A DNA stretch of 17,296 nucleotides from a virus. The stretch lies in UHGV virus genome UHGV-0304874, one strand, 5' to 3'. Below the pieces are notes generated by a model. It saw nothing but the letters and a program-made list of their open reading frames with translations. It was not told where the DNA came from and made no database searches. Of this stretch, positions 1-16,640 are shown in pieces (the first letter of the stretch is position 1; each line of letters starts with the position of its first letter). The position numbers and the translations under genes are program-made.

Positions 1-1141
1 TATTTCTAATGAGGTTGTCAATGTATAACAAATTCTTAAAATCTTCTTCGGGAATTTTTTGTTCGTCTAAATCACTTTGGGATAGCTCGTTTATTAATGA
101 TGATATGTCATGTGTTAGAGTGTGTTTTTTTAATTTTGAGAGGTCAGATTTGATAATGTTATTTTTAGATAGGCTGTACTCATCTGTTATAAAGTTTTGA
201 ATCATCATCTCTCTTTTTGTGGATTTTTGATTCCCTCCAAAAGAGAGTGTGCAGCCTAATTCAAGGGCTAGTTCTGCCATTAATTCATCAAAGCCTTCTA
301 TTTCTACCCAATAAACTTTCTCTTGACCTAGAAGCCTAATTAGTTCTGGTGGGATGGCGTCATTTTGTCTTACGCACCAATATACCCCATTCCGTAGGTA
401 ATCGTCCTGTTTTAATAAATGTTTTAAAACATCCATGATAGAGCTGTCATTGCCAGCATAACCAACAAAAATAATCCCGTATTCTTTAGTGAATTCAGTT
501 AGTTTTTCACGAGTGTTACCTTCTAATGACTCGGTTTCTTTTAAAGAGCTTTTTATGCTATCAAATAGATAATCACCATGTAATTTTATTATTTTTGGTC
601 TTGAAGAAGTAATTGAGACGCCTTTAATTGATGAGTCATGTGCGCATAATAATGGTCTGTCAGAAGAAAATTGATAAAATGCTTCATTTATTAAATCGTC
701 AAAATTTGTTGTGAAGACAGTATCAAAAAACTTTGATTCAAATAGTTCAACGAGATAAGCATATCCAATTGAAGGTAATTTTTTGTCTACTTGAAGCTCA
801 ACAAATCTTCTGCGTTGAGATGGGAGATCAAATTTCTTTTCAAAAAGAGAGGAGTATTCATTGTTTGGGTCGTACCAGACTGGATGGTTTTTGGATAGCC
901 ATTTTTTAGCTTCTTCGGCATTGATATATTCTTCATTGGATAGTCTTGTGTATATCTCTTCTCTCCATTTTGCAACTAACTCTTGACCAGTTTTTATTCC
1001 TGATGTAACGGATGCACCAGCACCAAGAAAGAGTGAATAGTTAGGTGATGTACCTGATTTGATTTTTATATAATCAGCTAAATCTTTAACTGTTCTTTTT
1101 TTGGCAACCAGTTGTTCCTTGGTAGTATCACGATCAGACAT
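1..1141 (-). CDS. SIR2-like (sirtuin-fold, predicted NAD+-hydrolysing) domain protein, N-terminal ~380 aa; 3' end lies beyond the window start
   Basis: Manual minus-strand translation from ATG (rc of 1139-1141), preceded by GGAGGG, is open to position 2 with no TTA/CTA/TCA triplets in frame. Protein begins MSDRDTTKEQLVAKKRTVKDLADYIKIKSGTSPNYSLFLGAGASVTSGIKTG. Motifs: LFLGAGAS (Gly-rich loop), VFTTNFDDL (Asn), KIIKLHGDY (His), IIFVGYAGND. Not in the ORF track because it has no in-window stop. Confidence 0.6.
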   Translation of the reverse strand, partial: MSDRDTTKEQLVAKKRTVKDLADYIKIKSGTSPNYSLFLGAGASVTSGIKTGQELVAKWREEIYTRLSNEEYINAEEAKKWLSKNHPVWYDPNNEYSSLFEKKFDLPSQRRRFVELQVDKKLPSIGYAYLVELFESKFFDTVFTTNFDDLINEAFYQFSSDRPLLCAHDSSIKGVSITSSRPKIIKLHGDYLFDSIKSSLKETESLEGNTREKLTEFTKEYGIIFVGYAGNDSSIMDVLKHLLKQDDYLRNGVYWCVRQNDAIPPELIRLLGQEKVYWVEIEGFDELMAELALELGCTLSFGGNQKSTKREMMIQNFITDEYSLSKNNIIKSDLSKLKKHTLTHDISSLINELSQSDLDEQKIPEEDFKNLLYIDNLIRN

Positions 1142-1465: not shown

Positions 1466-1598
1466 TGCGCGCAATGATGTCAGTTTGAGGGCATCAGGCA
1501 TGGGGACACTACACAGTTTCATTTTTGTTATTAATTGTTTATCATATAAGTGTTTGTTTTTTGAACGGCATGTCGTGTGCTATATGGAGTGAATAGAA

Positions 1599-1868
1599 GT
1601 GACTAAATTTGACAAAAAAAAAGCAATTTCTATTTTAACAGAAAAAAAAGCCTTGCTCCCATGTCATCGGTGTGGAAATTCAAAGTTCATCATTTTGGAT
1701 GGCATATCATCACTTCCATTAATGGAAAATATGGAAATGATTGGTAGTATTGTTGTTGGCGGAATGAATGCTCCTGTATTACATGTGGCATGTGAGAATT
1801 GTGGTGCAGTTACTTCACATTTGCTTGGGGCACTTGGTTTAATGCCGGAGATTAAATCAAATGACTAA
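1599..1868 (+). CDS. Small four-cysteine (CxxC...CxxC, zinc-ribbon-like) protein, 89 aa, unknown function; first gene of a two-gene cargo operon
   Basis: ORF with GTG start 9 nt after GGAG (1586-1589). Two CxxC pairs (PCHRCG and ACENCG) about 43 residues apart. The last codons overlap the next gene start by 8 bp (ATGACTAA). AT-rich compared with the phage backbone. Confidence 0.5.
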   Translation: MTKFDKKKAISILTEKKALLPCHRCGNSKFIILDGISSLPLMENMEMIGSIVVGGMNAPVLHVACENCGAVTSHLLGALGLMPEIKSND

Positions 1869-2331
1869 GGATGTTTTTTTCTCTGATGAAGGTAGTGGTA
1901 AAAAAAGTGCTGTCTTGCATGGGGCGCAGGTTACAATAAACCCTGATTCGCAATTTACAAAAAAGATAATTAGGCAGACTGAGGTTGATGTTATTGTGAT
2001 AAGTGATGATAAACTTCATATAATTTTGACGAATTGCTTATCTAAAATTGCATCATTAAACCGCTGGTCAACACCTTTGGGTATTTTAATTACCTTGGCG
2101 GTAACTATGTTAACCACAAATTTTAAGAATTTTATTCTTCAGGATTCTGTGTGGGAGGCTGTTTTCTGGATGCTTATTTTTTTTAATATTATCTGGTTGG
2201 TGAAAAACATTCCATATAGACACTTATTTTTAACTGTTTGTCATTCTATAGGGGTTCGTAAAGATAAAAAAAGAATTAGTGATGTATACCACATTATAGA
2301 TATAATTAAACAAGGTGATACACGCTTTTGA
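1861..2331 (+). CDS. Predicted membrane protein, 156 aa, with a soluble N-terminal ~65 aa and two hydrophobic helices; second gene of the two-gene cargo operon
   Basis: ATG at 1861, 10 nt after GGAG (1847-1850), overlapping the upstream stop. Hydrophobic segments PLGILITLAVTMLTT and AVFWMLIFFNIIWLV. No motif I recognise. Confidence 0.5.
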   Translation: MTKDVFFSDEGSGKKSAVLHGAQVTINPDSQFTKKIIRQTEVDVIVISDDKLHIILTNCLSKIASLNRWSTPLGILITLAVTMLTTNFKNFILQDSVWEAVFWMLIFFNIIWLVKNIPYRHLFLTVCHSIGVRKDKKRISDVYHIIDIIKQGDTRF

Positions 2332-2407: not shown

Positions 2408-3427
2408 TCATAATGTGTATTTGTTGAATCTAATTATTTCTTCGCCAACCCATTCATTAAGGGCAATAAAGCGAGATTGAATAGGAGTAAGCTCATTGCG
2501 GACAAAGACCTTTGCCACTTTCTCAATATCACCCAGCGACCCGACGTTCTCCGGCTTGCCGCCCATCAACTGAAAGGGGATGCGGTGCGCGTCCAGCAGG
2601 TCAGCGGCGCTGGCTTTTTTGATATTAAAAAAATCGTCCTTCGTTGCCACTTCACTGAGCGGGATAATTTTAATGCCGTCGGCTTTCCCCTGCGGGGCAT
2701 AGAGAAACAGATTTTTAAAGTTGTTGCGGCCTTTCGACTTGACCATGTTTTCGCGAAGCATTTCGATATCGTTGCGATCCTGCACGGCATCGGTGACGTA
2801 CATGATATATCCGGCATGCGCGCCGTTTTCGTAATACTTGCGGCGGAACAGCGTGGCCGACTCATTCAGCCAGGCAGAGTTAAGGGCGCTGAGATATTCC
2901 GGCAGGCCGTACAGCTCCTGATTAATATCCGGCTCCAGCAGATGAAACACGGAGCCGGGCGCGAAGGCTGTCGGCTCGTTGAAGGATGGCACCCACCAGT
3001 AAACATCCTCCTCCACGCCACGGCGGGTATATTTTGCCGGTGAGGTTTCCAGTCTGATGACCTTACCGGTGGTGCTGTAACGCTTTTCCAGAAACGCATT
3101 ACCGAACACCAGAAAATCCAGCACAAAGCGGCTGAAATCCTGCTGGGAAAGCCACGGATGCGGGATAAATGTCGAGGCCAGAATATTACGTTTGACGTAA
3201 ATCGGTGAGCTGTGATGCACGGCAGCACGCAGGCTTTTTGCCAGACCGGTAAAGCTGACCGGTGGCTCATACCATCTGCCGTTACTGATGCACTCGACGT
3301 AATCCAGAATGTCACGGCGGTCGAGTACCGGCACCGGCTCACCAAAGGTGAATGCCTCCATTTTCGGGGGGCTGGCGGTCATTGTTTTTGCCGCAGGTTG
3401 CGGTGTTTTCCCTTTTTTCTTGCTCAT
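2408..3427 (-). CDS. Q: Portal protein (P2 gpQ-like)
   Basis: 339-aa ORF starting MSKKKGKTPQPAAKT, recognised as P2 Q. Its ATG overlaps the P stop by 1 nt (TGATG). The last ~25 codons are noticeably AT-rich. Confidence 0.93.
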   Translation of the reverse strand: MSKKKGKTPQPAAKTMTASPPKMEAFTFGEPVPVLDRRDILDYVECISNGRWYEPPVSFTGLAKSLRAAVHHSSPIYVKRNILASTFIPHPWLSQQDFSRFVLDFLVFGNAFLEKRYSTTGKVIRLETSPAKYTRRGVEEDVYWWVPSFNEPTAFAPGSVFHLLEPDINQELYGLPEYLSALNSAWLNESATLFRRKYYENGAHAGYIMYVTDAVQDRNDIEMLRENMVKSKGRNNFKNLFLYAPQGKADGIKIIPLSEVATKDDFFNIKKASAADLLDAHRIPFQLMGGKPENVGSLGDIEKVAKVFVRNELTPIQSRFIALNEWVGEEIIRFNKYTL

Positions 3428-5199
3428 CAGTAAAACTCCAGAATGGTGGATGTCAGCGGGGTGCTGATACCGGCGGTGAGTGGCTCATTTAACAGGGCGT
3501 GCATGGTCGCCCAGGCGAGGTCGGCGTGGCTGGCTTCCTCGCTGCGGCTGGCCTCATAGGTGGCGCTGCGTCCGCTGCTGGTTATGGTCTTGCGGATAGC
3601 CATAAACGAGCTGGTGATGTCGGTGGCGCTGACGTCATATTCCAGACAGCCACGGCGGATAACGTCTTTTGCCTTGAGCACCATTGCGGTTTTCATTTCC
3701 GGTGTGTAGCGGATATCGCGCGCGGCGGGATAGAACGAGCGCACGAGCTGGAACACGCCGACACCGAGGCCGGTGGCATCAATACCGATGTATTCGACGT
3801 TATATTTTTCGGTGAGTTTTCGGATGGATTCAGCCTGGGTGGCAAAGTCCATGCCTTTCCACTGGTGACGCTCAAGTATTCTGAATTTGCCACCGGCCAC
3901 CACCGGCGGTGCCAGCACCACGCATCCGGCACTGTCGCCACGGTGTGACGGGTCGTAACCAATCCATACCGGGCGGGAGCCGAACGGATTGGCGGCAAAC
4001 GGCGCATAGTCTTCCCATTCTTCCAGCGTGTCGACCATGCAGCGTTGCAGCTCCTCGAACGGGAACACCGACGCCTTGTCGTCAACAAATTCACACATGA
4101 ACAGGTTTTTAAAATCGTCGGCGCTGTTTTCGCGTTTAAGCTGCTCAATGTCGAACAGCGTGCAGCCACCTTTCAGGGCATCCTCAATGGTGACAATCTG
4201 CCGCCACTGGCCGTCCGCACAGAGAAGCCCACCGGCAAGGGCGTTATGACTGACGTCGATTTCCACGCGTTCGGCGGCGCTGGCGCGTCCCCGGTTGAAC
4301 AGTTCACCCGACCAGAACGGGTAGGCGTCGTGCGCCAGCGTGGACGGGGTGGAGAAATAGGTCGAGCGCAGGTGACTCTGTGAGGCCATACCTGATGCCA
4401 CCTTACGCAGTACCTGAAAATTCGGGATCCAGAAAATCTCATCGACGTACAGGTCGCCGTTATGGCTCTGTGCGGTGTTGGAGTTGGTGCCGAGAAAAAT
4501 CAGTTTTGCACCGTTATTGCCCAGGACAATCGGGTCACCGGTCAGGTCAACGTCAACCAGCCGGGCAAAGGCAATGATGTATTCGCGGAACACATACGCC
4601 TGCGTTTTACTGGCCGACAGAAAAATCTGGTTATGGCCGGTTTTCAGGGCGCGCAGCAGCGCCTCGCGGGAAAAATAAAACGTCGCGCCAATCTGGCGGG
4701 ATTTCAGGATATCGCGGATGCGGTGCTCAAGTCCGGCGCGATACCAGTGCAACTGATATTCGAAAGACTGCTCAAAGAAAATCTGCTCCAGCTTTTCGAT
4801 GGCCTCGTCACTGAAAAAATTCTTTTTCGGTTTGCGACGCCCGCCTTTGTTGCGGTTAGCGACGTTCGGATTAAGGTCTGCCTCGTTGCCGGTCTGACTG
4901 TAGCGGTTGACCCGCGCCAGTCGTTCAATCTGGCGTCCCAGCAGGTCAATTTCCTTGAAATCACCGCCGGTTTTCTGCGGTTTGATGATGAGCTGGGTCA
5001 GCCGCGCTTCCAGACTCATTTCGACACGGCTGATGGGGGCAACGCTGTCCCAGCCGTCGCGCTGTTTCCAGCTCTGCACCGTCGGGCGTTTCATCTGCAA
5101 CATGGCGGCAATCTGCGGCACGGAAAAACCCTGCCAGTACAGCAGCGCCGCCTGACGACGCGGGTCGTGTAAAAGAGTGGTGTCTGTGGTGATGGCCAT
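3427..5199 (-). CDS. P: Terminase large (ATPase) subunit (P2 gpP-like)
   Basis: The track ORF 3427..5229 begins MPCIHHGEVFMAITTD. Starting at the internal Met (MAITTDTTLLHDPRRQAALLYWQGFSV) gives 590 aa, the P2 gpP length. Position and divergent orientation relative to O match P2. Confidence 0.93.
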   Translation of the reverse strand: MAITTDTTLLHDPRRQAALLYWQGFSVPQIAAMLQMKRPTVQSWKQRDGWDSVAPISRVEMSLEARLTQLIIKPQKTGGDFKEIDLLGRQIERLARVNRYSQTGNEADLNPNVANRNKGGRRKPKKNFFSDEAIEKLEQIFFEQSFEYQLHWYRAGLEHRIRDILKSRQIGATFYFSREALLRALKTGHNQIFLSASKTQAYVFREYIIAFARLVDVDLTGDPIVLGNNGAKLIFLGTNSNTAQSHNGDLYVDEIFWIPNFQVLRKVASGMASQSHLRSTYFSTPSTLAHDAYPFWSGELFNRGRASAAERVEIDVSHNALAGGLLCADGQWRQIVTIEDALKGGCTLFDIEQLKRENSADDFKNLFMCEFVDDKASVFPFEELQRCMVDTLEEWEDYAPFAANPFGSRPVWIGYDPSHRGDSAGCVVLAPPVVAGGKFRILERHQWKGMDFATQAESIRKLTEKYNVEYIGIDATGLGVGVFQLVRSFYPAARDIRYTPEMKTAMVLKAKDVIRRGCLEYDVSATDITSSFMAIRKTITSSGRSATYEASRSEEASHADLAWATMHALLNEPLTAGISTPLTSTILEFY

Positions 5200-5372
5200 G
5201 AATACCTCGCCGTGATGAATACACGGCAAGGCTACTGAGTCGCGCCCCGCGATTCGCTAAGGTGCTGTTGTGTCAGTGATAAACCATCCGGGACTGATGG
5301 CGGAGGATGCGCATCGTCGGGAAACTGATGCCGACATGTGACTCCTCTAATCACTATTCAGGACTCCTGACA
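5200..5372. promoter_or_regulatory. Divergent P / O intergenic region, expected to carry the Ogr-dependent late promoters for P-Q and O-N-M-L
   Basis: A 173-bp gap between divergently transcribed P and O, the same length as I recall for P2. I could not confidently pick out the promoter motifs by eye. Confidence 0.4.
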
Positions 5373-6227
5373 ATGGCAAAAAAAGTCTCAAAATTCTTTC
5401 GTATCGGCGTTGAGGGTGACACCTGTGACGGGCGTGTCATCAGTGCGCAGGATATTCAGGAAATGGCCGAAACCTTTGACCCGCGTGTCTATGGTTGCCG
5501 CATTAACCTGGAACATCTGCGCGGCATCCTGCCTGACGGTATTTTTAAACGTTATGGCGATGTGGCCGAACTGAAGGCCGAAAAGATTGACGATGATTCG
5601 GCGCTGAAAGGCAAATGGGCGCTGTTTGCGAAAATCACCCCGACCGATGACCTTATCGCGATGAACAAGGCCGCGCAGAAGGTCTATACCTCAATGGAAA
5701 TTCAGCCGAACTTTGCCAATACAGGCAAATGTTATCTGGTGGGTCTGGCCGTCACCGATGACCCGGCAAGCCTCGGCACGGAATACCTGGAATTCTGCCG
5801 CACGGCAAAACACAACCCTCTGAACCGCTTCAAATTAAGCCCTGAAAACCTGATTTCAGTGGCAACGCCTGTTGAGCTGGAATTTGAAGACCTGCCTGAA
5901 ACCGTGTTCACCGCCCTGACCGAAAAGGTGAAATCCATTTTTGGCCGCAAACAGGCCAGCGATGACGCCCGTCTGAATGACGTGCATGAAGCGGTGACCG
6001 CTGTTGCTGAACATGTGCAGGAAAAACTGAGCGCCACTGAGCAGCGCCTCGCTGAGGTGGAAACCGCCTTTTCCGCACTTAAGCAGGAGGTGACTGACAG
6101 GGCGGATGAAACCAGCCAGGCATTCACCCGCCTGAAAAACAGTCTCGACCACACCGAAAGTCTGACCCAGCAGCGCCGCAGCAAGGCCACCGGTGGTGGC
6201 GGTGACGCCCTGATGACGAACTGCTGA
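5373..6227 (+). CDS. O: Capsid scaffolding protein (P2 gpO-like)
   Basis: Track ORF 5307..6227; the P2-like N-terminus MAKKVSKFFRIGVEGDTCDGRVISAQDIQEMAETFDPRV starts at the ATG at 5373, giving 284 aa. Confidence 0.9.
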   Translation: MAKKVSKFFRIGVEGDTCDGRVISAQDIQEMAETFDPRVYGCRINLEHLRGILPDGIFKRYGDVAELKAEKIDDDSALKGKWALFAKITPTDDLIAMNKAAQKVYTSMEIQPNFANTGKCYLVGLAVTDDPASLGTEYLEFCRTAKHNPLNRFKLSPENLISVATPVELEFEDLPETVFTALTEKVKSIFGRKQASDDARLNDVHEAVTAVAEHVQEKLSATEQRLAEVETAFSALKQEVTDRADETSQAFTRLKNSLDHTESLTQQRRSKATGGGGDALMTNC

Positions 6228-6285
6228 CCGGCGTCAGTCAGTCCGGGAAAACCTTCACGATTAACCCTTAATTTCAGGAAAAACT

Positions 6286-7359
6286 ATGCGCCAGGAAACC
6301 CGCTTTAAATTTAATGCCTACCTGTCCCGTGTTGCCGAACTGAACGGCATCGACGCCGGTGATGTGTCGAAAAAGTTCACCGTTGAACCGTCGGTCACCC
6401 AGACCCTGATGAACACCATGCAGGAGTCCTCTGACTTTCTGACCCGCATCAACATTGTGCCGGTCAGCGAAATGAAAGGGGAAAAAATTGGTATCGGTGT
6501 CACCGGCTCCATTGCCAGCACCACCGACACCGCCGGTGGCACCGAGCGTCAGCCGAAGGACTTCTCGAAGCTGGCGTCCAACAAGTACGAATGCGACCAG
6601 ATTAACTTCGATTTTTATATCCGCTACAAAACGCTGGACCTGTGGGCGCGTTATCAGGATTTCCAGCTCCGTATCCGTAACGCCATTATTAAACGCCAGT
6701 CCCTTGATTTCATCATGGCCGGTTTTAACGGCGTGAAGCGTGCCGAAACCTCTGACCGCAGCAGCAATCCGATGTTGCAGGATGTGGCGGTCGGCTGGCT
6801 GCAGAAATACCGCAATGAAGCTCCGGCGCGCGTGATGAGCAAGGTCACTGACGAGGAAGGCCATACCACCTCTGAGGTTATCCGCGTGGGTAAGGGCGGT
6901 GATTATGTCAGCCTTGATGCACTGGTGATGGATGCGACCAATAACCTGATTGAACCGTGGTATCAGGAAGACCCTGACCTTGTGGTGATTGTGGGGCGTC
7001 AGCTACTGGCGGACAAGTATTTCCCCATCGTTAACAAGGAGCAGGACAACAGCGAAATGCTGGCCGCTGACGTCATCATCAGCCAGAAACGCATCGGTAA
7101 CCTGCCGGCGGTACGCGTCCCGTACTTCCCGGCGGATGCGATGCTCATCACAAAGCTGGAAAACCTGTCCATCTACTACATGGATGACAGCCATCGCCGC
7201 GTGATTGTGGAAAACCCGAAACTCGACCGCGTGGAGAACTACGAGTCAATGAACATTGATTACGTGGTGGAAGACTACGCCGCCGGTTGTCTGGTGGAAA
7301 AAATTAAGGTCGGTGATTTTTCCACACCGGCTAAGGCGACCGCAGAGCCGGGAGCGTAA
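6286..7359 (+). CDS. N: Major capsid protein (P2 gpN-like)
   Basis: 357 aa, MRQETRFKFNAYLSRVAELNGIDAGDVSKKF; length and position match P2 N. Confidence 0.95.
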   Translation: MRQETRFKFNAYLSRVAELNGIDAGDVSKKFTVEPSVTQTLMNTMQESSDFLTRINIVPVSEMKGEKIGIGVTGSIASTTDTAGGTERQPKDFSKLASNKYECDQINFDFYIRYKTLDLWARYQDFQLRIRNAIIKRQSLDFIMAGFNGVKRAETSDRSSNPMLQDVAVGWLQKYRNEAPARVMSKVTDEEGHTTSEVIRVGKGGDYVSLDALVMDATNNLIEPWYQEDPDLVVIVGRQLLADKYFPIVNKEQDNSEMLAADVIISQKRIGNLPAVRVPYFPADAMLITKLENLSIYYMDDSHRRVIVENPKLDRVENYESMNIDYVVEDYAAGCLVEKIKVGDFSTPAKATAEPGA

Positions 7360-7362
7360 CCG

Positions 7363-8106
7363 ATGACGAGTCCCGCACAGCGCCACATGATGCGGGTCTC
7401 GGCAGCGATGACCGCGCAGCGGGAAGCCGCCCCGCTGCGACATGCAACTGTCTATGAGCAGATGCTGGTTAAGCTCGCCGCAGACCAGCGCACACTGAAA
7501 GCAATTTATTCAAAAGAGCTGAAGGCCGCGAAAAAGCGCGAACTGCTGCCGTTCTGGTTGCCGTGGGTGAACGGCGTGCTGGAGCAGGGCAAAGGTGCAC
7601 AGGATGACATTCTGATGACAGTCATGCTGTGGCGTCTGGATACCGGCGATATTGCCGGTGCGCTGGAGATTGCCCGTTATGCCCTGAAGTACGGTCTGAC
7701 CATGCCGGGTAAACACCGCCGCACCCCGCCGTACATGTTCACCGAGGAAGTGGCGCTTGCGGCCATGCGCGCTCACGCTGCCGGTGAGTCTGTGGATCCC
7801 CGCCTGCTGATGGACACCCTCGAACTGACCGCCACGGCTGACATGCCTGATGAAGTGCGCGCAAAGCTGCACAAAATCACCGGTCTGTTTCTGCGTGACG
7901 CTGGTGATGCCGCCGGTGCGCTGGCTCACCTGCAACGTGCGACACAGCTCGACTGTCAGGCAGGCGTCAAAAAAGAGATTGAACGACTGGAGCGGGAGCT
8001 GAAACCGAAGCCGGAGCCGCAGCCCAAAGCGGCCTCCCGCGCCCCGCGTAAGACCCGGAGCGTGACACCGGCAAAACGTGGACGCCCGAAAAAGAAAGCC
8101 AGTTAA
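7363..8106 (+). CDS. M: Terminase small (endonuclease) subunit (P2 gpM-like)
   Basis: 247 aa, starts 4 nt after the N stop; basic Lys/Arg/Pro-rich C-terminal tail; position matches P2 M. Confidence 0.92.
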   Translation: MTSPAQRHMMRVSAAMTAQREAAPLRHATVYEQMLVKLAADQRTLKAIYSKELKAAKKRELLPFWLPWVNGVLEQGKGAQDDILMTVMLWRLDTGDIAGALEIARYALKYGLTMPGKHRRTPPYMFTEEVALAAMRAHAAGESVDPRLLMDTLELTATADMPDEVRAKLHKITGLFLRDAGDAAGALAHLQRATQLDCQAGVKKEIERLERELKPKPEPQPKAASRAPRKTRSVTPAKRGRPKKKAS

Positions 8107-8205
8107 CAACCGAATGCGCCCCGCGCCAGGGCGGCACGCCGGTCAGTGAGGGTGAATCACCTGACACTGCACCGGTGTCCACCGCCCGACTTTTCAGAGG
8201 TAGTC

Positions 8206-8715
8206 ATGATGACGCTGATTATTCCGCGAAAGGAGGCTCCCGTGTCCGGTGAGGGTACGGTGGTCATCCCGCAACCGGCAGGCGACGAGCCGGTGATTAA
8301 AAACACGTTCTTTTTTCCCGATATCGACCCGAAGCGCGTCCGGGAACGTATGCGCCTTGAGCAGACCGTCGCCCCCGCCCGTCTGCGTGAGGCCATCAAG
8401 TCAGGCATGGCGGAGACGAATGCGGAGCTGTACGAGTACCGCGAACAGAAAATTGCCGCCGGTTTTACGCGTCTGGTGGAAGTCCCGGCGGACGATATCG
8501 ACGGTGAAAGCATCAAAGTTTTTTACTACGAGCGCGCCGTGTGTGCGATGGCGACCGCATCGCTTTATGAGCGTTATCGCGGCGTGGATGCCAGTGCCAA
8601 AGGCGACAAGAAGGCCGACAGCATTGACAGCACCATTGATGAACTGTGGCGGGATATGCGCTGGGCGGTGGCGCGTATCCAGGACAAGCCGCGCTGCATC
8701 GTGAGTCAAATCTGA
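8206..8715 (+). CDS. L: Head completion / stabilisation protein (P2 gpL-like)
   Basis: ATG at 8206 after AGAGG gives 169 aa (MMTLIIPRKEAPVSGEG...); the track's longer ORF from 8146 lacks this RBS. The stop overlaps the X start. Confidence 0.88.
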   Translation: MMTLIIPRKEAPVSGEGTVVIPQPAGDEPVIKNTFFFPDIDPKRVRERMRLEQTVAPARLREAIKSGMAETNAELYEYREQKIAAGFTRLVEVPADDIDGESIKVFYYERAVCAMATASLYERYRGVDASAKGDKKADSIDSTIDELWRDMRWAVARIQDKPRCIVSQI

Positions 8716-8918
8716 TGAAGACCTTTGCGCTACAGGGCGACACGCTCGACGCCATCTGTGTCCGGTATTACGGGCGCACTGAGGGCGTGGTTGAGACCGT
8801 GCTCGCCGCAAATCCGGGACTGGCTGAACTGGGGGCGGTGCTGCCGCACGGCACCGCCGTCGAACTGCCCGACGTTCAGACCGCGCCCGTGGCTGAAACT
8901 GTCAATCTGTGGGAGTAA
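8715..8918 (+). CDS. X: Tail protein X (P2 gpX-like)
   Basis: 67 aa from the ATG at 8715 (MKTFALQGDTLDAICVRYYGRTEG...), overlapping the L stop (TGATG); inside track ORF 8646..8918. Confidence 0.85.
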   Translation: MKTFALQGDTLDAICVRYYGRTEGVVETVLAANPGLAELGAVLPHGTAVELPDVQTAPVAETVNLWE

Positions 8919-8921
8919 CGC

Positions 8922-9203
8922 ATGACAGCAGAAGAAAAAAGCGTCCTGTCGCTTTTCATGATTGGGGTGCTGATTGTTGTCGGCAAGGTGCTTGCCGGTG
9001 GTGAACCCATCACCCCGCGTCTGTTTATCGGGCGCATGTTGCTCGGTGGTTTTGTCTCGATGGTTGCCGGTGTTGTTCTGGTGCAGTTTCCTGACCTGTC
9101 ACTGCCTGCGGTGTGCGGCATCGGCTCCATGCTGGGTATCGCCGGCTATCAGGTGATTGAGATTGCCATTCAGCGCCGTTTTAAGGGCAGGGGGAAACCG
9201 TAA
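8922..9203 (+). CDS. Y: Holin (P2 gpY-like)
   Basis: 93 aa with hydrophobic helices (LSLFMIGVLIVVGKVLAGG; LLGGFVSMVAGVVLV) and a charged C-terminus; position matches P2 Y. Confidence 0.85.
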   Translation: MTAEEKSVLSLFMIGVLIVVGKVLAGGEPITPRLFIGRMLLGGFVSMVAGVVLVQFPDLSLPAVCGIGSMLGIAGYQVIEIAIQRRFKGRGKP

Positions 9204-9700
9204 TGCCGGTAATTAACACGCATCAGAATATCGCCGCCTTTCTCGACATGCTGGCCGTGTCCGAAGGGACGGCGAATCATCCGCTGACGAAAAACCGGGG
9301 CTATGACGTGATAGTCACCGGACTGGACGGAAAGCCGGAAATTTTCACCGACTACAGTGACCACCCGTTCGCACATGGCCGACCAGCGAAGGTGTTTAAC
9401 CGTCGCGGTGAAAAATCCACGGCCTCCGGTCGCTATCAGCAGCTTTACCTGTTCTGGCCGCACTACCGTAAACAGCTTGCCCTGCCTGATTTCAGTCCGT
9501 TGTCACAGGACAGACTCGCCATTCAGTTGATCCGCGAACGCGGTGCACTGGATGACATCCGGGCGGGACGCATTGAGCGCGCCATTTCACGCTGTCGCAA
9601 TATCTGGGCGTCCCTGCCGGGTGCCGGTTACGGTCAGCGTGAGCATTCACTGGAAAAACTGGTCACCGTCTGGCGTACCGCTGGCGGCGTACCGGCTTAA
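9203..9700 (+). CDS. K: Endolysin / lysozyme (P2 gpK-like)
   Basis: 165 aa, MPVINTHQNIAAFLDMLAVSEGT...; its start overlaps the Y stop (TAATG); canonical P2 position. Confidence 0.9.
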   Translation: MPVINTHQNIAAFLDMLAVSEGTANHPLTKNRGYDVIVTGLDGKPEIFTDYSDHPFAHGRPAKVFNRRGEKSTASGRYQQLYLFWPHYRKQLALPDFSPLSQDRLAIQLIRERGALDDIRAGRIERAISRCRNIWASLPGAGYGQREHSLEKLVTVWRTAGGVPA

Positions 9701-9714
9701 ACGGAGTAAACACC

Positions 9715-10140
9715 ATGAAGAAATTATCCCTTTCACTGATGCTGAACGTGTCGCTGGCACTGATGCTGGCACTGTCCCTGATTTACCCGCAGAGCGTGGC
9801 CGTCAGTTTTGTCGCCGCCTGGGCGATTCTGGCGACGGTTATCTGTGTGGTTGCCGGTGGTGTCGGCGTGTATGCCACTGAGTATGTGCTGGAACGCTAC
9901 GGGCGGGAGCTGCCGCCGGAATCGCTGGCCGTGAAGATTGTCGCGTCGCTGTTTTTACAGCCGGTGCCGTGGCGCAGGCGGGCAGCGGCTCTGGTGGTGA
10001 TGGTGGCGACGTTTATCTCGCTGGTCGCTGCCGGGTGGATTTTTACTGCGCTGATTTATCTTGTGGCGTCGCTGTTTTTCCGGCTGATACGTACGGCCTG
10101 CCGTCAGCGTTTTGAGGGGCGGGAACCATGTCAAAGCTGA
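9715..10140 (+). CDS. lysA: Lysis accessory membrane protein LysA
   Basis: 141 aa, very hydrophobic (MKKLSLSLMLNVSLALMLALSLIYP...), sits between K and lysB as in P2. Confidence 0.8.
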   Translation: MKKLSLSLMLNVSLALMLALSLIYPQSVAVSFVAAWAILATVICVVAGGVGVYATEYVLERYGRELPPESLAVKIVASLFLQPVPWRRRAAALVVMVATFISLVAAGWIFTALIYLVASLFFRLIRTACRQRFEGREPCQS

Positions 10141-10553
10141 TGATTGTGCTGGTCGTGTTGTTATCACTGGCGGTGGCCGGTCTGTTTCTGGCGAAGCATG
10201 AAAACGCCAGCCTGCGCACCTCGCTGGACAGGGCGAACAACGTCGCCAGCGGGCAGCAGACGACCATCACCATGCTGAAAAATCAGCTTCATGTTGCCCT
10301 CACCAGAGCAGACAAAAACGAGCTGGCGCAGGTGGCACTGCGTCAGGAACTGGAGAACGCGGCGAAGCGTGAAGCACAGCGCGAGAAAACCATCACGAGG
10401 TTACTGAATGAAAACGAAGATTTTCGCCGCTGGTACGGCGCTGGCCTGCCTGATGCTGTGCGCCGGTTGCACCAGCGCCCGGCCTGCACCGACGCCAGTG
10501 ATTGTCGCCAACGCCTGCCCGAAAGTGAGCCTTTGCCCGATGCCGGGCAGTGA
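10128..10553 (+). CDS. lysB: LysB, Rz-like spanin component
   Basis: 141 aa with an N-terminal transmembrane helix (LMIVLVVLLSLAVAGLFLA) and a coiled-coil-like remainder; overlaps the lysA end; P2 position. Confidence 0.8.
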   Translation: MSKLMIVLVVLLSLAVAGLFLAKHENASLRTSLDRANNVASGQQTTITMLKNQLHVALTRADKNELAQVALRQELENAAKREAQREKTITRLLNENEDFRRWYGAGLPDAVRRLHQRPACTDASDCRQRLPESEPLPDAGQ

Positions 10554-10698
10554 CCCGGAGACGAACGGCGATTTAAGTGCCGATATCCGACAGCTTGAGA
10601 ACGCGCTGGCACGCTGTGCCAGCCAGGTAAAAATGATTAAACACTGTCAGGACGAAAACGATGCTCAAACCCGACAGCCTGCGCAGGGCGCTGACTGA
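10408..10698 (+). CDS. lysC: LysC, Rz1-like outer-membrane lipoprotein spanin, started inside lysB in another frame
   Basis: 96-aa ORF with a signal peptide and lipobox-like LCAGC, then Pro-rich sequence; GAGG 7 nt upstream of the ATG; nested in the 3' part of lysB, the known P2 arrangement. Confidence 0.7.
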   Translation: MKTKIFAAGTALACLMLCAGCTSARPAPTPVIVANACPKVSLCPMPGSDPETNGDLSADIRQLENALARCASQVKMIKHCQDENDAQTRQPAQGAD

Positions 10699-11128
10699 TG
10701 CCGTCACGGTGCTGAAAACCAGTCCCGAGATGCTGCGGATATTCGTTGATAACGGGAGTATTGCCTCCACACTGGCGACGTCGCTGTCATTCGAAAAGCG
10801 TTACACGCTCAATGTGATTGTGACCGACTTTACCGGTGATTTTGACCTGCTCATCGTGCCGGTGCTGGCGTGGCTGCGGGAAAATCAGCCCGACATCATG
10901 ACCACCGACGCAGGCCAGAAAAAGGGCTTCACGTTTTATGCAGACATCAACAATGACAGCAGCTTTGATATCAGCATCAGCCTGATGCTGACCGAGCGCA
11001 CGCTGGTCAGTGAGGTGGAAGGCGCGCTGCATGTGAAGAATATCCCGGAACCCACGCCGCCGGAGCCGGTCACCCGCCCGATGGAGCTGTATATCAATGG
11101 CGAACTGGTGAGCAAGCGGGATGAATGA
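10661..11128 (+). CDS. R: Tail completion protein (P2 gpR-like)
   Basis: 155 aa, MLKPDSLRRALTDAVTVLKTSPEMLRIFVDNG...; length and position match P2 R. Confidence 0.9.
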   Translation: MLKPDSLRRALTDAVTVLKTSPEMLRIFVDNGSIASTLATSLSFEKRYTLNVIVTDFTGDFDLLIVPVLAWLRENQPDIMTTDAGQKKGFTFYADINNDSSFDISISLMLTERTLVSEVEGALHVKNIPEPTPPEPVTRPMELYINGELVSKRDE

Positions 11129-11231
11129 GTTTAAGCGTTTTGAAGACCGGCTGGCCGACATTGTGCTCAACAGTACGCAGGCGTCTTTCTGTACTGAATA
11201 CCGCGTCGTGACCGGAGGCTCGGATGAGTGA
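11121..11231 (+). pseudogene. 36-codon remnant ORF at the S position: apparent in-frame fusion of the S start to the J end, with tail genes S, V, W and J absent
   Basis: ATG at 11121 overlaps the R stop by 8 bp and the stop at 11229-11231 overlaps the I start by 8 bp, the overlaps P2 has at R/S and J/I. Only 36 codons (MNEFKRFEDRLADIVLNSTQASFCTEYRVVTGGSDE) lie where P2 has roughly 2.8 kb. Confidence 0.55.
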
Positions 11232-11754
11232 TTCGCGACTGCTGCCGACCGGCTCATCACCGCTTGAAGTTGCCGCCGCAAAAGCCTGTGCGGAAATTGA
11301 AAAAACGCCGGTCAGGATTCGTGAACTGTGGAACCCGGACACCTGCCCGGCAAATCTGCTGCCGTGGCTGGCGTGGGCGTTTTCGGTCGACAGGTGGGAT
11401 GAAAAGTGGCCGGAAGCGACCAAACGTGCCGTTATCCGCGATGCCTATTTCATCCACTGTCATAAAGGCACTATCGGCGCAATCCGGCGTGTGGTGGAGC
11501 CGCTCGGCTATCTCATTAACGTGACGGAGTGGTGGGAAAACAGTGACCAGCCAGGCACCTTCCGGCTTGATATTGGTGTACTGGAAAGCGGTATCACAGA
11601 GGCAATGTATCAGGAAATGGAACGGCTGATTGCTGATGCCAAACCTGCAAGCCGCCACCTTATTGGCCTGAACATTACCCGGGACATTCCCGGCTACCTG
11701 TTCGCCGGTGGTGTGGCTTATGACGGCGATGTAATTACGGTTTACCCCGGATAA
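11224..11754 (+). CDS. I: Baseplate assembly protein (P2 gpI-like)
   Basis: 176 aa, MSDSRLLPTGSSPLEVAAAKACAEIEKTPV...; recognised as P2 I; directly upstream of H. Confidence 0.9.
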   Translation: MSDSRLLPTGSSPLEVAAAKACAEIEKTPVRIRELWNPDTCPANLLPWLAWAFSVDRWDEKWPEATKRAVIRDAYFIHCHKGTIGAIRRVVEPLGYLINVTEWWENSDQPGTFRLDIGVLESGITEAMYQEMERLIADAKPASRHLIGLNITRDIPGYLFAGGVAYDGDVITVYPG

Positions 11755-11764
11755 GTGAGGAATA

Positions 11765-13810
11765 ATGAGCACAAAATTCAAAACCGTTATCACCACTGCC
11801 GGTGCAGCAAAGCTGGCAGCGGCAACCGCGCCGGGAGGGCGGAAGGTCAACATTACCACGATGGCCGTCGGGGATGGCGGTGGTAAATTGCCTGTCCCGG
11901 ATGCCGGACAGACCGGGCTTATCCACGAAGTCTGGCGACATGCGCTGAACAAAATCAGCCAGGACAAACGAAACAGTAATTATATTATCGCAGAGCTGGT
12001 TATTCCGCCGGAGGTGGGCGGTTTCTGGATGCGAGAGCTTGGCCTGTACGATGATGCGGGAACGTTAATTGCCGTGGCGAACATGGCCGAAAGTTATAAA
12101 CCTACCCTTGCCGAAGGCTCAGGGCGTTCGCAGACCTGCCGCATGGTCATCATCGTCAGCAGTGTGGCCTCAGTGGAGCTGACCATTGACACCACAACGG
12201 TGATGGCGACGCAGGATTACGTTGATGACAAAATTGCAGAGCATGAACAGTCACGACGTCACCCGGACGCCTCGCTGACCGCAAAAGGTTTTACTCAGTT
12301 AAGCAATGCGACCAACAGCACGTCTGAAACACTGGCCGCAACGCCGAAAGCGGTTAAGGCCGCATATGACCTTGCTAACGGGAAATATACCGCACAGGAC
12401 GCTACCACAGCGCGAAAAGGTCTTGTCCAGCTAAGTAGTGCGACCAACAGCATGGCTGAGACGCTCGCCGCAACACCAAAAGCCGTTAAGACGGTAATGG
12501 ATGAAACGAACAAGAAAGCGCCATTAAACAGCCCTGCACTGACCGGAACGCCAACGACGCCAACTGCGCGACAGGGAACGAATAATACTCAGATCGCAAA
12601 CACGGCTTTCGTTATGGCCGCGATTGCCGCCCTTGTAGACTCGTCGCCTGACGCACTGAATACGCTGAACGAGCTGGCGGCGGCGCTGGGCAATGACCCG
12701 AATTTTGCTACCACCATGACTAATGCGCTTGCGGGTAAGCAACCGAAAGATGCCACTTTGACGGCGCTGGCGGGGCTTGCTACTGCGGCAGACAGGTTTC
12801 CGTATTTTACGGGGAATGATGTTGCCAGCCTGGCAACCCTGACAAAAGTCGGACGGGATATTCTGGCTAAAGCGACCGTTACTGCCGTTATCGAATACCT
12901 CGGTTTGCAGGAAACGGTAAACAGGGCCAGGAACGCGGTGCAAAAGAATGGCGATACCTTGTCCGGTGGGCTTACTTTTGAAAACGACTCAATCCTTGCC
13001 TGGATTCGAAATACTGACTGGGCAAAGATTGGATTTAAAAATGATGCCGACAGCGATACTGATTCATATATGTGGTTTGAAACAGGTGACAACGGCAATG
13101 AATATTTCAAATGGAGAAGTCGCCAGAGCACCACAACAAAAGACCTGATGAATCTTAAATGGGATGCTCTGTATGTTCTTGTTAAAGCCCTTTTCAGCAG
13201 TGAAGTAAAAATATCTACAGTCAATGCACTGAGGATATTTAATTCATCTTTTGGGGCTATTTTTCGCCGTTCTGAAGAAAACCTGTATATCATTCCTACA
13301 CGAGAAAATGAGGGTGAAAATGGAGATATTGGGCCATTAAGGCCATTCGGCATCAACTTAAGAACAGGAGTTGTGTCTGTTGGTAATGGTGCCAGGATTG
13401 ATGGCGGGCTGGCACTTGGCACGAATAACGCGTTGGGTGGGAACTCTATTGTTCTTGGTGATAACGACACCGGATTTAAACAAAATGGCGATGGTAATCT
13501 GGATGTTTATGCTAATAACGTCCATGTTATGCGCTTTGTTTCCGGAAGCATTCAAAGTAATAAGACCATAAATATTACGGGGCGTGTTAATCCCTCGGAT
13601 TACGGTAACTTTGATTCCCGCTATGTGAGAGATATCAGACTTGGCACACGTGTTGTCCAGACCATGCAGAAAGGGGTGATGTATGAGAAAGCAGGGCACG
13701 TAATTACCGGGCTTGGTATTGTCGGTGAAGTCGATGGTGATGACCCCGCAGTATTCAGGCCAATACAAAAATACATCAATGGCACATGGTATAACGTCGC
13801 ACAGGTGTAA
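11765..13810 (+). CDS. H: Tail fibre protein (P2 gpH-like) with a lower-GC, probably mosaic C-terminal domain
   Basis: 681 aa; N-terminus MSTKFKTVITTAGAAKLAAATAPGGRKVNITTMAVGDGGG is P2 H-like; internal duplicated SETLAATPKAVK motif; base composition turns AT-rich from about 12970. Confidence 0.9.
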   Translation: MSTKFKTVITTAGAAKLAAATAPGGRKVNITTMAVGDGGGKLPVPDAGQTGLIHEVWRHALNKISQDKRNSNYIIAELVIPPEVGGFWMRELGLYDDAGTLIAVANMAESYKPTLAEGSGRSQTCRMVIIVSSVASVELTIDTTTVMATQDYVDDKIAEHEQSRRHPDASLTAKGFTQLSNATNSTSETLAATPKAVKAAYDLANGKYTAQDATTARKGLVQLSSATNSMAETLAATPKAVKTVMDETNKKAPLNSPALTGTPTTPTARQGTNNTQIANTAFVMAAIAALVDSSPDALNTLNELAAALGNDPNFATTMTNALAGKQPKDATLTALAGLATAADRFPYFTGNDVASLATLTKVGRDILAKATVTAVIEYLGLQETVNRARNAVQKNGDTLSGGLTFENDSILAWIRNTDWAKIGFKNDADSDTDSYMWFETGDNGNEYFKWRSRQSTTTKDLMNLKWDALYVLVKALFSSEVKISTVNALRIFNSSFGAIFRRSEENLYIIPTRENEGENGDIGPLRPFGINLRTGVVSVGNGARIDGGLALGTNNALGGNSIVLGDNDTGFKQNGDGNLDVYANNVHVMRFVSGSIQSNKTINITGRVNPSDYGNFDSRYVRDIRLGTRVVQTMQKGVMYEKAGHVITGLGIVGEVDGDDPAVFRPIQKYINGTWYNVAQV

Positions 13811-14341: not shown

Positions 14342-14509
14342 GTTGTATGAGCTCTGGTGTGAGCTTACATATCTATGGCACAGAGTAAAGCCTAATCTGA
14401 CAGTCCGTTCTGTGCCAGTAGCGGACGTTTGAATAAATTATTGATTAACTAAAGTTTTTGGCATTAAATTTTCAATTAAAATGTTCGCATTGATTTATTG
14501 GAGTAAATA

Positions 14510-14887
14510 ATGGATATACATGCAAAAAGAGTTGGCAGTCCACTTTATAAAATTATTATGTACTTAAATAAGTATGAAGAAGATACACTGGAAGACATAA
14601 AACTTCAGTTTCTTTTAAAAAATTTAAAAACTCATTTCAAGAAACTGTTTTATATGATTACTTACATTAATAAAATTCAAAAAGATGCTGAGTTCATCAG
14701 AAAACATGATGCAACATCAATTGTCAGCATTAGTGCTATTGAGTATTGCTATTATAAAATCAGCACGATATGGGATATTGCATATCAGATAGCTGATAAA
14801 TTAATTTTTCCAACTAAAAAAATGGCAACAAATATGATTACCTTGAAAATCATTTCCAGCAATATGCACAGGAATTTCCAGATTTGA
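14510..14887 (+). CDS. Hypothetical protein, 125 aa, AT-rich cargo in the G-FI (Z/fun-position) island
   Basis: ATG 5 nt after GGAGT (14500-14504); strongly AT-rich; no recognisable motif. Confidence 0.4.
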   Translation: MDIHAKRVGSPLYKIIMYLNKYEEDTLEDIKLQFLLKNLKTHFKKLFYMITYINKIQKDAEFIRKHDATSIVSISAIEYCYYKISTIWDIAYQIADKLIFPTKKMATNMITLKIISSNMHRNFQI

Positions 14888-15035
14888 ATTTAAAATGGTA
14901 TAAGGACTTTAATAAAATAAGATAGTTCATGGAGGGATAACAGTAAATCCTTATTATGTCAACGATGATAATATTAAAACAAAGATTTGTTTCCAAGCAT
15001 ATGACTCTGATCTAAACGATCTGATTCAACCTCAT

Positions 15036-15455
15036 ATGATGTATTCAAATAGATTCAATAACAATATTAATTTTGCTGATTACTATTTTACCTTTTATAC
15101 TCATCTTCTCTATTCATATCTTTTTGATTTTTTTGATTTTGTACTTCTTGAGCTAAACAAAGATAAATTACATGATTTAGACAATCTTATTCTTGATGAT
15201 ATACCGCACAAATTGTTTGGTGTTCATCATGAAACATGGTTGTTATCTGATGTTGATCAATTTATGAAAATTACAAGAGAAATGATTTCCCTACAAATAG
15301 CTGATGGTTGTTTAAATAAAATTGAGAAAATACCCTCAAGTGATATTGAACATTTTTTTAACAACTTTCCATTTTGTCTTATGACAAAGGTTAGCTCCGG
15401 AGATTGGGTATTGGTTGAGGATAAAGCGGCTGAAACACAGTCATCGGACACTTAA
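15036..15455 (+). CDS. Hypothetical protein, 139 aa, AT-rich cargo; weak translation signals, possibly a gene fragment
   Basis: ORF with tandem ATG ATG at 15036 but no clear Shine-Dalgarno; the frame is open upstream to 14916 without a start; acidic Asp/Phe-rich N-terminal half. Confidence 0.33.
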   Translation: MMYSNRFNNNINFADYYFTFYTHLLYSYLFDFFDFVLLELNKDKLHDLDNLILDDIPHKLFGVHHETWLLSDVDQFMKITREMISLQIADGCLNKIEKIPSSDIEHFFNNFPFCLMTKVSSGDWVLVEDKAAETQSSDT

Positions 15456-15472
15456 ATTTTTTTTGTGCCAAA

Positions 15473-15615
15473 GTCTACTCCTCGCTCGTCACAGGCTTTG
15501 GCATTCGTTTCAACAACCAAGTGATAGCATATATTGTGACCTGCACCCCGTTGATTCATACATCCTCGATGTAAGCAATCCCTTGAGAACGTCCACTCCT
15601 CGCTCTTAGCAGATC
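15473..15615 (+). repeat. Pair of 15-bp direct repeats (GTCTACTCCTCGCTC at 15473-15487, GTCCACTCCTCGCTC at 15601-15615) in the gap between the AT-rich ORFs and the nuclease-like ORF
   Basis: Read directly: 14/15 identical, 128 bp apart, at the composition boundary between two cargo blocks. Confidence 0.4.
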
Positions 15616-15749
15616 ACACGGTTCTTCAAACGATCCGCTTCGTACCAGAAACGAACTTTTATCTCAAATTTGAACCTTTTAGTGGATGACGACGTTTGTG
15701 TCTTCAAGTAGTCTTAAAAGCATGCGGATAGTGCATAGGAAAAGCAGAA

Positions 15750-16586: not shown

Positions 16587-16608
16587 TTTCATACATAAAC
16601 CATGCTCC

Positions 16609-16640
16609 CGCATGTCCGCATGTCCGCATGTCCGCATTTC
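16609..16640 (+). repeat. Tandem 8-bp repeat (CCGCATGT x3, then CCGCATTT) just downstream of the nuclease-like ORF
   Basis: Read directly: CCGCATGTCCGCATGTCCGCATGTCCGCATTT. Confidence 0.7.

Follow-up and report, generated by a model that had tools for sequence, protein, structure and literature searches.

A two-gene cassette next to cos in a P2-like prophage, pairing a zinc-ribbon-like protein with a small membrane protein, as a candidate phage-exclusion module

In the UHGV virus genome UHGV-0304874, of which the 17,296-nucleotide stretch analyzed here is called the window, a P2-like prophage carries two small overlapping genes in the interval from its cos site to its portal gene Q. We refer to them as A and B, with A encoding a four-cysteine zinc-ribbon-like protein and B a predicted two-helix membrane protein. 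The reading that we put first, holding it at a little less than even confidence, is that A and B constitute a self-contained, mobile, toxin-antitoxin-like phage-exclusion module of the abortive-infection type, in which B would act as the membrane effector. A superinfection-exclusion or abortive-infection role, as judged from context, is credible, and a plain toxin-antitoxin or addiction function fits almost as well. That A and B form a genuine two-gene unit, beyond chance, follows from the finding of homologues across phyla, from four cysteines that are invariant in A and from a junction between the genes that is conserved.

The initial annotation had described an operon encoding proteins of 89 and 156 amino acids joined by an 8-bp overlap, and the six-frame open reading frame (ORF) list bore this out, with gene A at 1599–1868 (plus strand, GTG start, 89 amino acids) and gene B at 1861–2331 (plus strand, ATG start, 156 amino acids), together spanning 733 bp. 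Exactly the same two coding sequences are held in RefSeq as WP_087891114.1 (A) and WP_023567683.1 (B), both named 'hypothetical protein', from a 99.9%-identical prophage in Escherichia coli SWHEFF_58. The stop codon of A and the start codon of B fall within the overlap ATGACTAA (1861–1868, plus strand), implying translational coupling, and each gene is preceded on the plus strand by a Shine-Dalgarno-like GGAG motif, at 1586–1589 for A (9 nt 5' of its start) and at 1847–1850 for B (10 nt 5' of its start). Co-translation, as proposed from the overlap, agreed well with what was seen at other loci: in a set of 36 distinct A+B pairs, with start codons picked heuristically, 27 overlapped, 8 were spaced by 0–4 bp and one by 19 bp, such that an overlapping or close junction was kept in 35 of 36.

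The idea of a dedicated system was to be abandoned, according to the initial annotation, should the two genes not co-occur in other genomes. They did, with B found directly downstream of A in 26 of 30 loci of an A-seeded metagenome scan, the four exceptions being A followed by an unrelated 299-residue protein (two loci of identical sequence), an isolated A, and a marginal Lar-like match in a phage. Close relatives of B (57–65% identity) were always accompanied by an overlapping upstream A homologue of 90 amino acids (58–61% identity), and distant A homologues on metagenome contigs (≈45% identity) were followed by 128-residue B homologues (≈28% identity) with the same overlapping junction. No third conserved gene was found, the neighbouring proteins forming no cluster.

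Using B as the seed instead, in a genome scan yielding 12 loci, we found A directly upstream in seven and an overlapping protein of ≈121 amino acids belonging to DUF6864 in the other five. The hosts with the A-type partner were Kofleriaceae, Crocinitomicaceae, Thioploca, Aliivibrio and other Gammaproteobacteria, and those with the DUF6864 partner were all Bacteroidota. The same alternative partner was seen upstream of B on a phage contig, where the pair adjoins HicAB, and in the alphaproteobacterium Radicibacter daui the overlapping 116-residue upstream partner aligns with DUF6864 proteins, an assignment made by alignment and not by a Pfam scan. That A and DUF6864 would be divergent homologues could be dismissed, with hhalign giving a probability of 1.5%. 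DUF6864 (PF21732) is a beta-rich protein of ≈115 amino acids, encountered here at loci L020, L021, L023, L030, L031 and L036 and, by alignment only, at the Radicibacter locus L075.

The dependence between the two genes appeared to be one-sided. Every B in the roughly 24 B-seeded loci that were inspected had an upstream partner of either the A or the DUF6864 type, and A occurred without B in several loci; one locus had an intact A beside a frameshifted B. This is the pattern to be expected if B is harmful when alone. Among the A-type zinc ribbons lacking B, one lies directly 5' of a gene for a 148-residue GNAT acetyltransferase (L010, 6001–6696) and another directly 5' of that for the 299-residue protein (L067, 1158–2319), and A-like proteins may thus be partners of other downstream genes too.

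The protein encoded by A carries two cysteine pairs, C22-x2-C25 and C65-x2-C68, and all four residues were invariant in 13 A homologues with identities down to 43%. The two CxxC knuckles typical of the zinc-ribbon class are hence conserved family-wide, within the motifs PCHRCG and CENCGAxTxH, the knuckles being separated by an insert of ≈40 residues and followed by a conserved HxLGxLGLL tail (LGxLGLL in the family motif). The best Pfam match of A was Lar_restr_allev at 17.8 bits as compared to a gathering cut-off of 28.6, covering only positions 2–33 of the 58 in the profile; ribosomal and TFIIB zinc-ribbon families were matched by the A family just as weakly. When searched against sequence profiles of the PDB, A gave only a generic zinc ribbon, that of archaeal RpoM-2 (7oqy_Y, E = 0.0065), and it had no match at E ≤ 1 in PADLOC-DB v2.0.0. 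A is best described as a cytosolic zinc-ribbon-like protein outside the characterised families. From its four invariant cysteines and the weak zinc-ribbon profile matches we infer that it may bind metal.

The two hydrophobic helices that had been noticed in B were supported by hydropathy, by an AlphaFold model and by family conservation, with the transmembrane segments at residues ≈70–87 and ≈97–116 followed by a basic C-terminal tail. The conserved core of the family comprises residues ≈32–117, in which a juxtamembrane motif (N-x-K-S-D-L-I-E-I-T-E-D-K-L-E-N-I-L) precedes the two helices; the part reading I-T-E-D-K-L in the family consensus is V-I-S-D-D-K-L in B itself. Seven residues, D50, K51, L56, W69, P72, F88 and W98, were invariant in 117 sequences. 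Lysine plus arginine residues in the family averaged 5.5 over the 30 residues before the first transmembrane helix and 4.7 beyond the second, as compared to 1.4 for the loop of ≈10 residues joining the helices. This distribution is consistent with B being a small helical hairpin in the inner membrane with both termini inside, and both conserved soluble parts of B would thereby face the cytoplasm, where A would be. The first transmembrane helix is rich in threonine and serine on one face (T78, T82, T85 and T86), which is compatible with a pore-lining B oligomer.

The mean predicted local distance difference test (pLDDT) score of the AlphaFold2 model of B was 53 with an alignment of 12 sequences and 62 with 117. 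The latter model had helices at residues 49–85 (the juxtamembrane segment continuing into the first transmembrane helix), 95–116 (the second), 121–130 and 142–150, with residues 1–44 left unmodelled, and nothing in PDB or BFVD matched it in Foldseek at E ≤ 0.001. A PDB sequence profile search with B gave nothing meaningful either. When 1.84 billion representative proteins were searched by profile, 1130 clusters were found at E ≤ 1e-3 and 171 of them still at E ≤ 1e-10, which makes the B family at least 1130 clusters in size at 50% identity, with members from Proteobacteria to Bacteroidota and in phages of Actinobacteria. No Pfam domain and no informative name was attached to any of the 120 listed relatives. 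When B and 25 family members were scanned against Pfam and PADLOC, only transmembrane noise was returned, B itself having no PADLOC match at E ≤ 1, and its PHROGs match was phrog_32870, a family of unknown function. A few long members of the family have extra C-terminal domains (DnaJ-like_C11_C, tudor or 3-keto-disaccharide hydrolase-like). The initial annotation had recognised neither protein, and no characterised family for A or B emerged from Pfam, PADLOC, PHROGs or the PDB profiles.

The pair is an autonomously mobile, horizontally acquired unit, found in prophage moron slots, on a small plasmid and in genomic islands. In P2-like prophages of Klebsiella it occupies another slot, between the tail genes S and V, and in Proteus faecis and Serratia marcescens it lies in non-phage chromosomal loci. 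A viral contig has it in a gpA–gpQ-type position adjoining a bSEFIR gene. Within the Klebsiella-type lineage a cassette of 1.2–1.5 kb, including ≈150–490 bp 5' of A, is kept across unrelated insertion sites, and the mobilizable Col(Ye4449) plasmid of Klebsiella pneumoniae (4,648 bp) has no cargo but the pair, its rep stop codon being overlapped by A. Further examples are Arthrobacter phage Shoya, with the pair as gp27/gp28 flanked by the lysis cassette on one side and the immunity/integrase cassette on the other, Shewanella sp. W3-18-1, where it lies beside smpB at one end of an HP1-like prophage, and a lambdoid prophage of Aeromonas. In Alteromonas sp. M12 it is located between two copies of IS110 (384-residue transposases on the same strand; L077, 3432–6975), near a NERD-helicase and a run of toxin-antitoxin operons; this bracketing suggests a composite-transposon arrangement as one possible route of mobility.

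Some of these copies are incompletely annotated. The deposited start of Shoya gp27 (61 amino acids) is too far downstream, the full ORF being up to 102 amino acids long with both CxxC knuckles and thus a complete A homologue (MN908684.1, ≈21380–21688; L073, 3591–3899). Gene A is uncalled in Shewanella sp. W3-18-1 (L074, 4745–5011) and in the Aeromonas prophage (L076, 4745–5008), in both of which an intact ORF overlaps the called B. Such under-annotation of small ORFs would hide the pairing in gene-based surveys.

The position of the pair in the window was established by comparison with P2. A P2-type cos, GGCGAGGCGGGGAAAGCAC, lies at 1447–1465 (no strand assigned) as an exact match to that of P2 and is the left landmark just outside the cassette, and the portal gene Q (339 amino acids) runs at 2408–3427 on the minus strand. 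The gap of about 940 bp between cos and Q that had been thought to be filled by the pair was confirmed at 942 bp. The corresponding distance in P2, given in the initial annotation as about 90 bp, is in fact 167 bp (cosL at 1–19, Q stop at 187), and the point about an enlarged gap stands. Positions 1–26 of P2 correspond to 1447–1472 of the window, whereupon homology is lost from 1473 and returns at 2488 (P2 position 282). These breaks indicate that P2 27–281, including the last ≈27 codons of Q, has been replaced by a foreign segment, the right edge of which is formed by the AT-rich, non-P2 3' end of Q (2408–2487, minus strand, from the P2 alignment). A dip in GC content extends over 2251–2550. 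The recombination junction of the cassette thus falls within Q and not in the intergenic region. The impression of an AT-rich module in a GC-richer phage was likewise correct, with 33.7% GC in the pair as compared to 56.5% in the backbone (2488–13000).

To the left of cos, a SIR2-family gene starts at 1141 and runs on the minus strand past the left end of the window (1–1141), as recognised with PADLOC pAgo-associated SIR2 models, PDC-S65 and phrog_14359. In SWHEFF_58 this gene encodes 864 amino acids and the gene order is gpA, SIR2, cos, A, B, Q; with gpA lying past the SIR2 gene, the pair is inside the gpA–gpQ interval. This interval is a defence hotspot of P2-like phages and the site of old and tin in P2 (Rousset 2022, PMC9122126), and a study from 2026 confirmed it as the main P2 hotspot (PMC13586616). 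The cassette has the attributes of hotspot cargo, located between replication gene A and Q, adjoining cos, variable and of foreign composition. On the gpA side of cos the SIR2-family gene is the main cargo, and it is probably a defence gene itself.

Among complete E. coli genomes the pair was present in 8 of 5426. Seven of these eight carriers match the window from ≈1412, just left of cos, and rightwards, with the left side differing; in ECC-1470, the one of the seven examined in this respect, a DUF7380/PDC-S39 gene takes the place of SIR2. As seven prophages keep the pair together with other left-hand content, it behaves as cargo of its own, independent of what lies across cos from it, on the side of Q.

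The initial annotation had taken this site to be a prophage accessory slot and the pair to be a candidate for an undescribed system. An accessory slot with acquired cargo it is, although the site had already been published as the gpA–gpQ (old/tin) hotspot, and the pair itself appears in Table S5A of that study, in the entries 'WP_001288417 + WP_087891114 + WP_023567683' and 'WP_074484671 + WP_023567683 + WP_087891114', each labelled 'hypothetical + hypothetical + hypothetical' (PMC9122126). The slot, the Q-proximal side of the hotspot, is hence known and the pair has been catalogued in raw, uncurated form. Searches of the literature on the accessions, on DUF6864 and on zinc-ribbon-plus-transmembrane defence gave nothing beyond that raw listing.

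Taken as a phage-exclusion module, the pair could work as follows. It would be expressed from the prophage, with A made in a fixed ratio just ahead of B, binding to the conserved cytoplasmic segment of B and holding it inactive. A would serve as an infection sensor or as a labile neutraliser. Infection would remove or titrate A, for example by host shut-off or through a phage protein, and B thereby set free would oligomerise via its hydroxyl-rich first transmembrane helix and the conserved aromatic residues, then permeabilise or depolarise the membrane and abort the infection. In other lineages, the unrelated DUF6864 protein would replace A as the partner of the same effector. Support for this reading comes from the placement of the pair in a validated hotspot beside a SIR2-family defence-type gene, from its travelling as a unit, from the tight pairing of the two genes and from the one-sided dependence of B on a partner. 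As a prior, six of eight randomly chosen unknown loci from the P4 hotspot were protective (PMC13586616); none of the systems named in that study resembles the A+B pair. Defence-type neighbours were also found at other loci, namely bSEFIR (twice), GajB, HEPN_AbiU2, DUF4062, PDC-S45 and HicAB. A PADLOC scan of 127 pooled neighbour proteins was dominated by redundant GajB models and serves as a qualitative count only (bSEFIR twice, GajB and PDC-S45), with no proper background rate. With about one locus in five concerned, the association with defence genes is genuine but moderate.

Several observations weigh against the exclusion module as just outlined. The interaction of A with B, the toxicity of B and its oligomerisation are all steps that we infer. 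Neither A nor B resembled known defence, toxin, holin or exclusion proteins in sequence or fold (Pfam, PADLOC, PHROGs and PDB, with Foldseek for B), and the pair had no entry in the DefensePredictor supplements searched, which is an absence of support and not a refutation. Confidence in the structure predicted for B is no more than moderate (mean pLDDT 62), its N-terminus being disordered, and the count behind B never being alone was made on a sample that is small, partly redundant and limited by the search pattern. A recognisable defence gene adjoins the pair at only about one locus in five, and several loci are set amid ordinary chromosomal genes (kdp, solute symporter and TonB receptor). 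In addition, a consensus-based promoter scan of the leader at 1473–1598 gave nothing above chance; the cassette presumably has a promoter of its own there.

Foremost among the competing explanations is that B is a membrane toxin and A its protein antitoxin, forming a plain toxin-antitoxin or addiction module that would be selected for stabilising the mobile element carrying it, with no specific anti-phage role. The order is the classic one of a small upstream gene overlapping the downstream one, unrelated partners (A or DUF6864) are exchanged on a conserved B, and B always comes with a partner while A is also found alone or with a broken B. The 4.6-kb Col plasmid, which carries nothing else as cargo and in which A overlaps the stop of rep, points the same way, as does the occurrence of the pair within the Alteromonas toxin-antitoxin array and beside HicAB in a phage. 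In being two small, overlapping and co-occurring genes with a second gene never alone, carried on plasmids, in prophages and in toxin-antitoxin arrays, A and B are indeed like type II toxin-antitoxin systems. They differ from these in that the putative toxin B is an integral membrane protein and not a soluble enzyme, and in that A has no helix-turn-helix, ribbon-helix-helix or AbrB domain, or any other recognisable DNA-binding or autoregulatory domain. Known toxin and antitoxin families were unmatched, Pfam and PADLOC returning sub-threshold zinc ribbons for A and none for B. High-copy Col plasmids rarely need addiction modules, and the placement in defence hotspots and moron slots together with the defence neighbours is better explained by exclusion. 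We regard addiction as the sole function as fairly unlikely, with the reservation that it overlaps the phage-exclusion reading, many toxin-antitoxin systems being themselves abortive-infection systems. An accessory membrane function without any role in phage or element conflict, in which the pair would be, for example, a regulator of stress, ions or the envelope that hitch-hikes in variable regions, would account for the loci lying amid kdpDE, solute symporter, cupin and glyoxalase genes, for the C-terminal extras of long B members, which look non-defensive, and for the lack of a match in the defence library. The pair is, against this, patchy and rare (eight of the complete E. coli genomes) and foreign in composition, it moves as a 1.2–1.5 kb unit among phages, a plasmid and IS-flanked sites, and it is found repeatedly in prophage slots dedicated to morons or defence, all of which makes such a function unlikely.

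Under non-lethal superinfection exclusion, an inner-membrane B to whose cytoplasmic side A is docked would block DNA entry or another early membrane step of incoming phages, much as T4 Imm or HK97 gp15 do. A small inner-membrane B encoded by temperate phages in slots expressed in the lysogen would suit such a role, as would the short, conserved periplasm-facing loop and the conserved elements at the membrane interfaces, and the location is a hotspot for phage-exclusion genes. The cassette is, however, also common in non-phage chromosomes and plasmids and in phyla with very different envelopes, including a phage of Actinobacteria, the most conserved part of B is cytoplasmic rather than surface-exposed, and a strict need for a cytosolic partner is atypical of known exclusion proteins; we find this variant quite unlikely. 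A very remote prospect, finally, is that A is a Lar-type restriction-alleviation (anti-defence) protein to which B would be incidental. Of the 13 A-family members, 12 did match Lar_restr_allev weakly (best E = 8.5e-4), and the weakest A-seeded metagenome match (L070) is a Lar-like zinc ribbon beside a phage gene judged from motifs alone to encode a C5 DNA methyltransferase. Every one of these matches was below the gathering score and confined to the zinc knuckles, around a long insert, with other zinc ribbons matching equally weakly, and the obligate coupling of A to a membrane protein would be left unexplained. As small prophage-encoded proteins with two CxxC knuckles, A and Lar (PF14354) are alike; Lar lacks both the ≈40-residue insert and the HxLGxLGLL tail of A, which is moreover coupled to a membrane protein, and with 17.8 bits against the 28.6 required A stays below the threshold of the Lar family.

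The pair can also be set against systems having a similar architecture. Two-gene defences of actinobacteriophages that are expressed from the prophage and combine a small cytosolic with a small membrane protein are reportedly found, for example, in mycobacteriophages Butters (gp30/gp31) and Sbash (gp30/gp31), between the lysis and the immunity/integration cassettes, and the Shoya copy of A and B has the same moron position. Their membrane proteins reportedly have four transmembrane helices and partners that are not zinc ribbons, and no homology to A and B would be expected. Small hairpin membrane killers with a swappable upstream sensing or regulating module are likewise known as SLATT-type, Pycsar PycTM, CBASS two-transmembrane (2TM) and retron 2TM effectors, from which B differs in that its conserved element is an N-terminal juxtamembrane motif and not a C-terminal ligand-binding domain. 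B did not group with these suicide effectors: among 25 family members there was no SLATT match and a single one to PycTM (E = 0.016). No nucleotide cyclase, reverse transcriptase or other conserved signal-producing neighbour was found among the pair loci.

As AT-rich, variable cargo next to cos in a P2-like prophage, the pair is similar to the cargo described for gpA–gpQ (Rousset 2022, PMC9122126), differing from the rest of that cargo by being on the Q side of cos, apart from the main cargo gene, and uncurated. Some of the validated gpA–gpQ Rst systems also use small transmembrane proteins as presumed effectors (PMC9122126). The Rst system of phage P2_AC1, consisting of a TIR protein and proteins with two and one transmembrane helices (TIR + 2TM + 1TM), was tried as a relative and set aside, as tblastn with A and B gave no match at E ≤ 1 against the two of its three genes that were retrieved, the third being cut at the edge; unlike that system with its TIR gene, the pair has no TIR or other enzymatic partner and no third gene. 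A class II (two-helix) phage holin was not a fitting description of B either, as the pair lies outside the lysis cassette, is convergent with the late P–Q operon and also occurs outside phages. Holin profiles gave single, noise-level matches only among the 25 B-family members, and the P2-type lysis genes (holin, endolysin, LysB and LysC) of the 97–99%-identical SWHEFF_58 prophage map to ≈8920–10700 of the window.

The surroundings of the pair comprise an AT-rich, non-P2 leader 5' of gene A (1473–1598, plus strand), beginning where P2 homology stops at 1472, and, beyond Q, the terminase gene P at 3427–5229 on the minus strand (ORF list). An Rfam scan for antisense or regulatory RNA at the pair gave no match. 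Between the convergent genes B and Q, RNA folding predicted a GC-rich hairpin at 2365–2387 (AGCCGCC, a 9-nt loop and GGCGGCU; no strand assigned), with a folding energy of −22.4 kcal/mol and a z-score of −3.8 that was equalled by none of 200 shuffled sequences. The GCCGCC/GGCGGC stem is common to this hairpin and to the P2 tQ terminator (P2 160–181), and the hairpin is probably a bidirectional terminator, the counterpart of tQ.

Two further features of the window were noted. At a junction at ≈11151–11157, marked by a 7-bp overlap, ≈2.3 kb is missing in comparison with the SWHEFF_58 prophage (L071, 3090–5385), so that of these baseplate genes V and W are absent entirely and S and J for the most part; with this S/V/W/J region missing, the prophage looks defective, provided that the assembly is correct. 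After the tail-fibre assembly gene G, in the position of Z/fun in P2, a slot at 14430–16630 is AT-rich (27–31% GC over 14500–15500) and holds ORFs of 125, 139 and 278 amino acids; SWHEFF_58 has a different hypothetical protein of 433 amino acids there. This slot is a second accessory cargo site of the same prophage.

Unknown cargo is common in the gpA–gpQ hotspot, and the A+B pair stands out from it by how broad the B family is, by partner exchange, by its mobility across phyla and by its very small size. It is possible, at a confidence we would place well under even, that the pair is the first recognised member of a widespread and database-invisible two-gene anti-phage class, in which one conserved family of two-helix effectors would be controlled by interchangeable, unrelated small sensors or neutralisers, being either a four-cysteine zinc ribbon or DUF6864. 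The latter in any case gains its first genomic-context clue, as an alternative upstream partner of B-family proteins. P2-like phages moreover have, on the Q-proximal side of cos, a cargo site separate from that of the main gpA-side cargo, and a single prophage can thereby stack two systems within the hotspot. If the pair were an addiction module only, it would still represent a new kind of protein-neutralised membrane toxin. Should it protect against phages, it would be a compact (733 bp) and broadly distributed addition to the catalogue of defence systems, giving a function to two orphan families, the B-type two-helix proteins that have no Pfam entry and DUF6864, and offering a simple model of a minimal membrane effector that is restrained by exchangeable partners.

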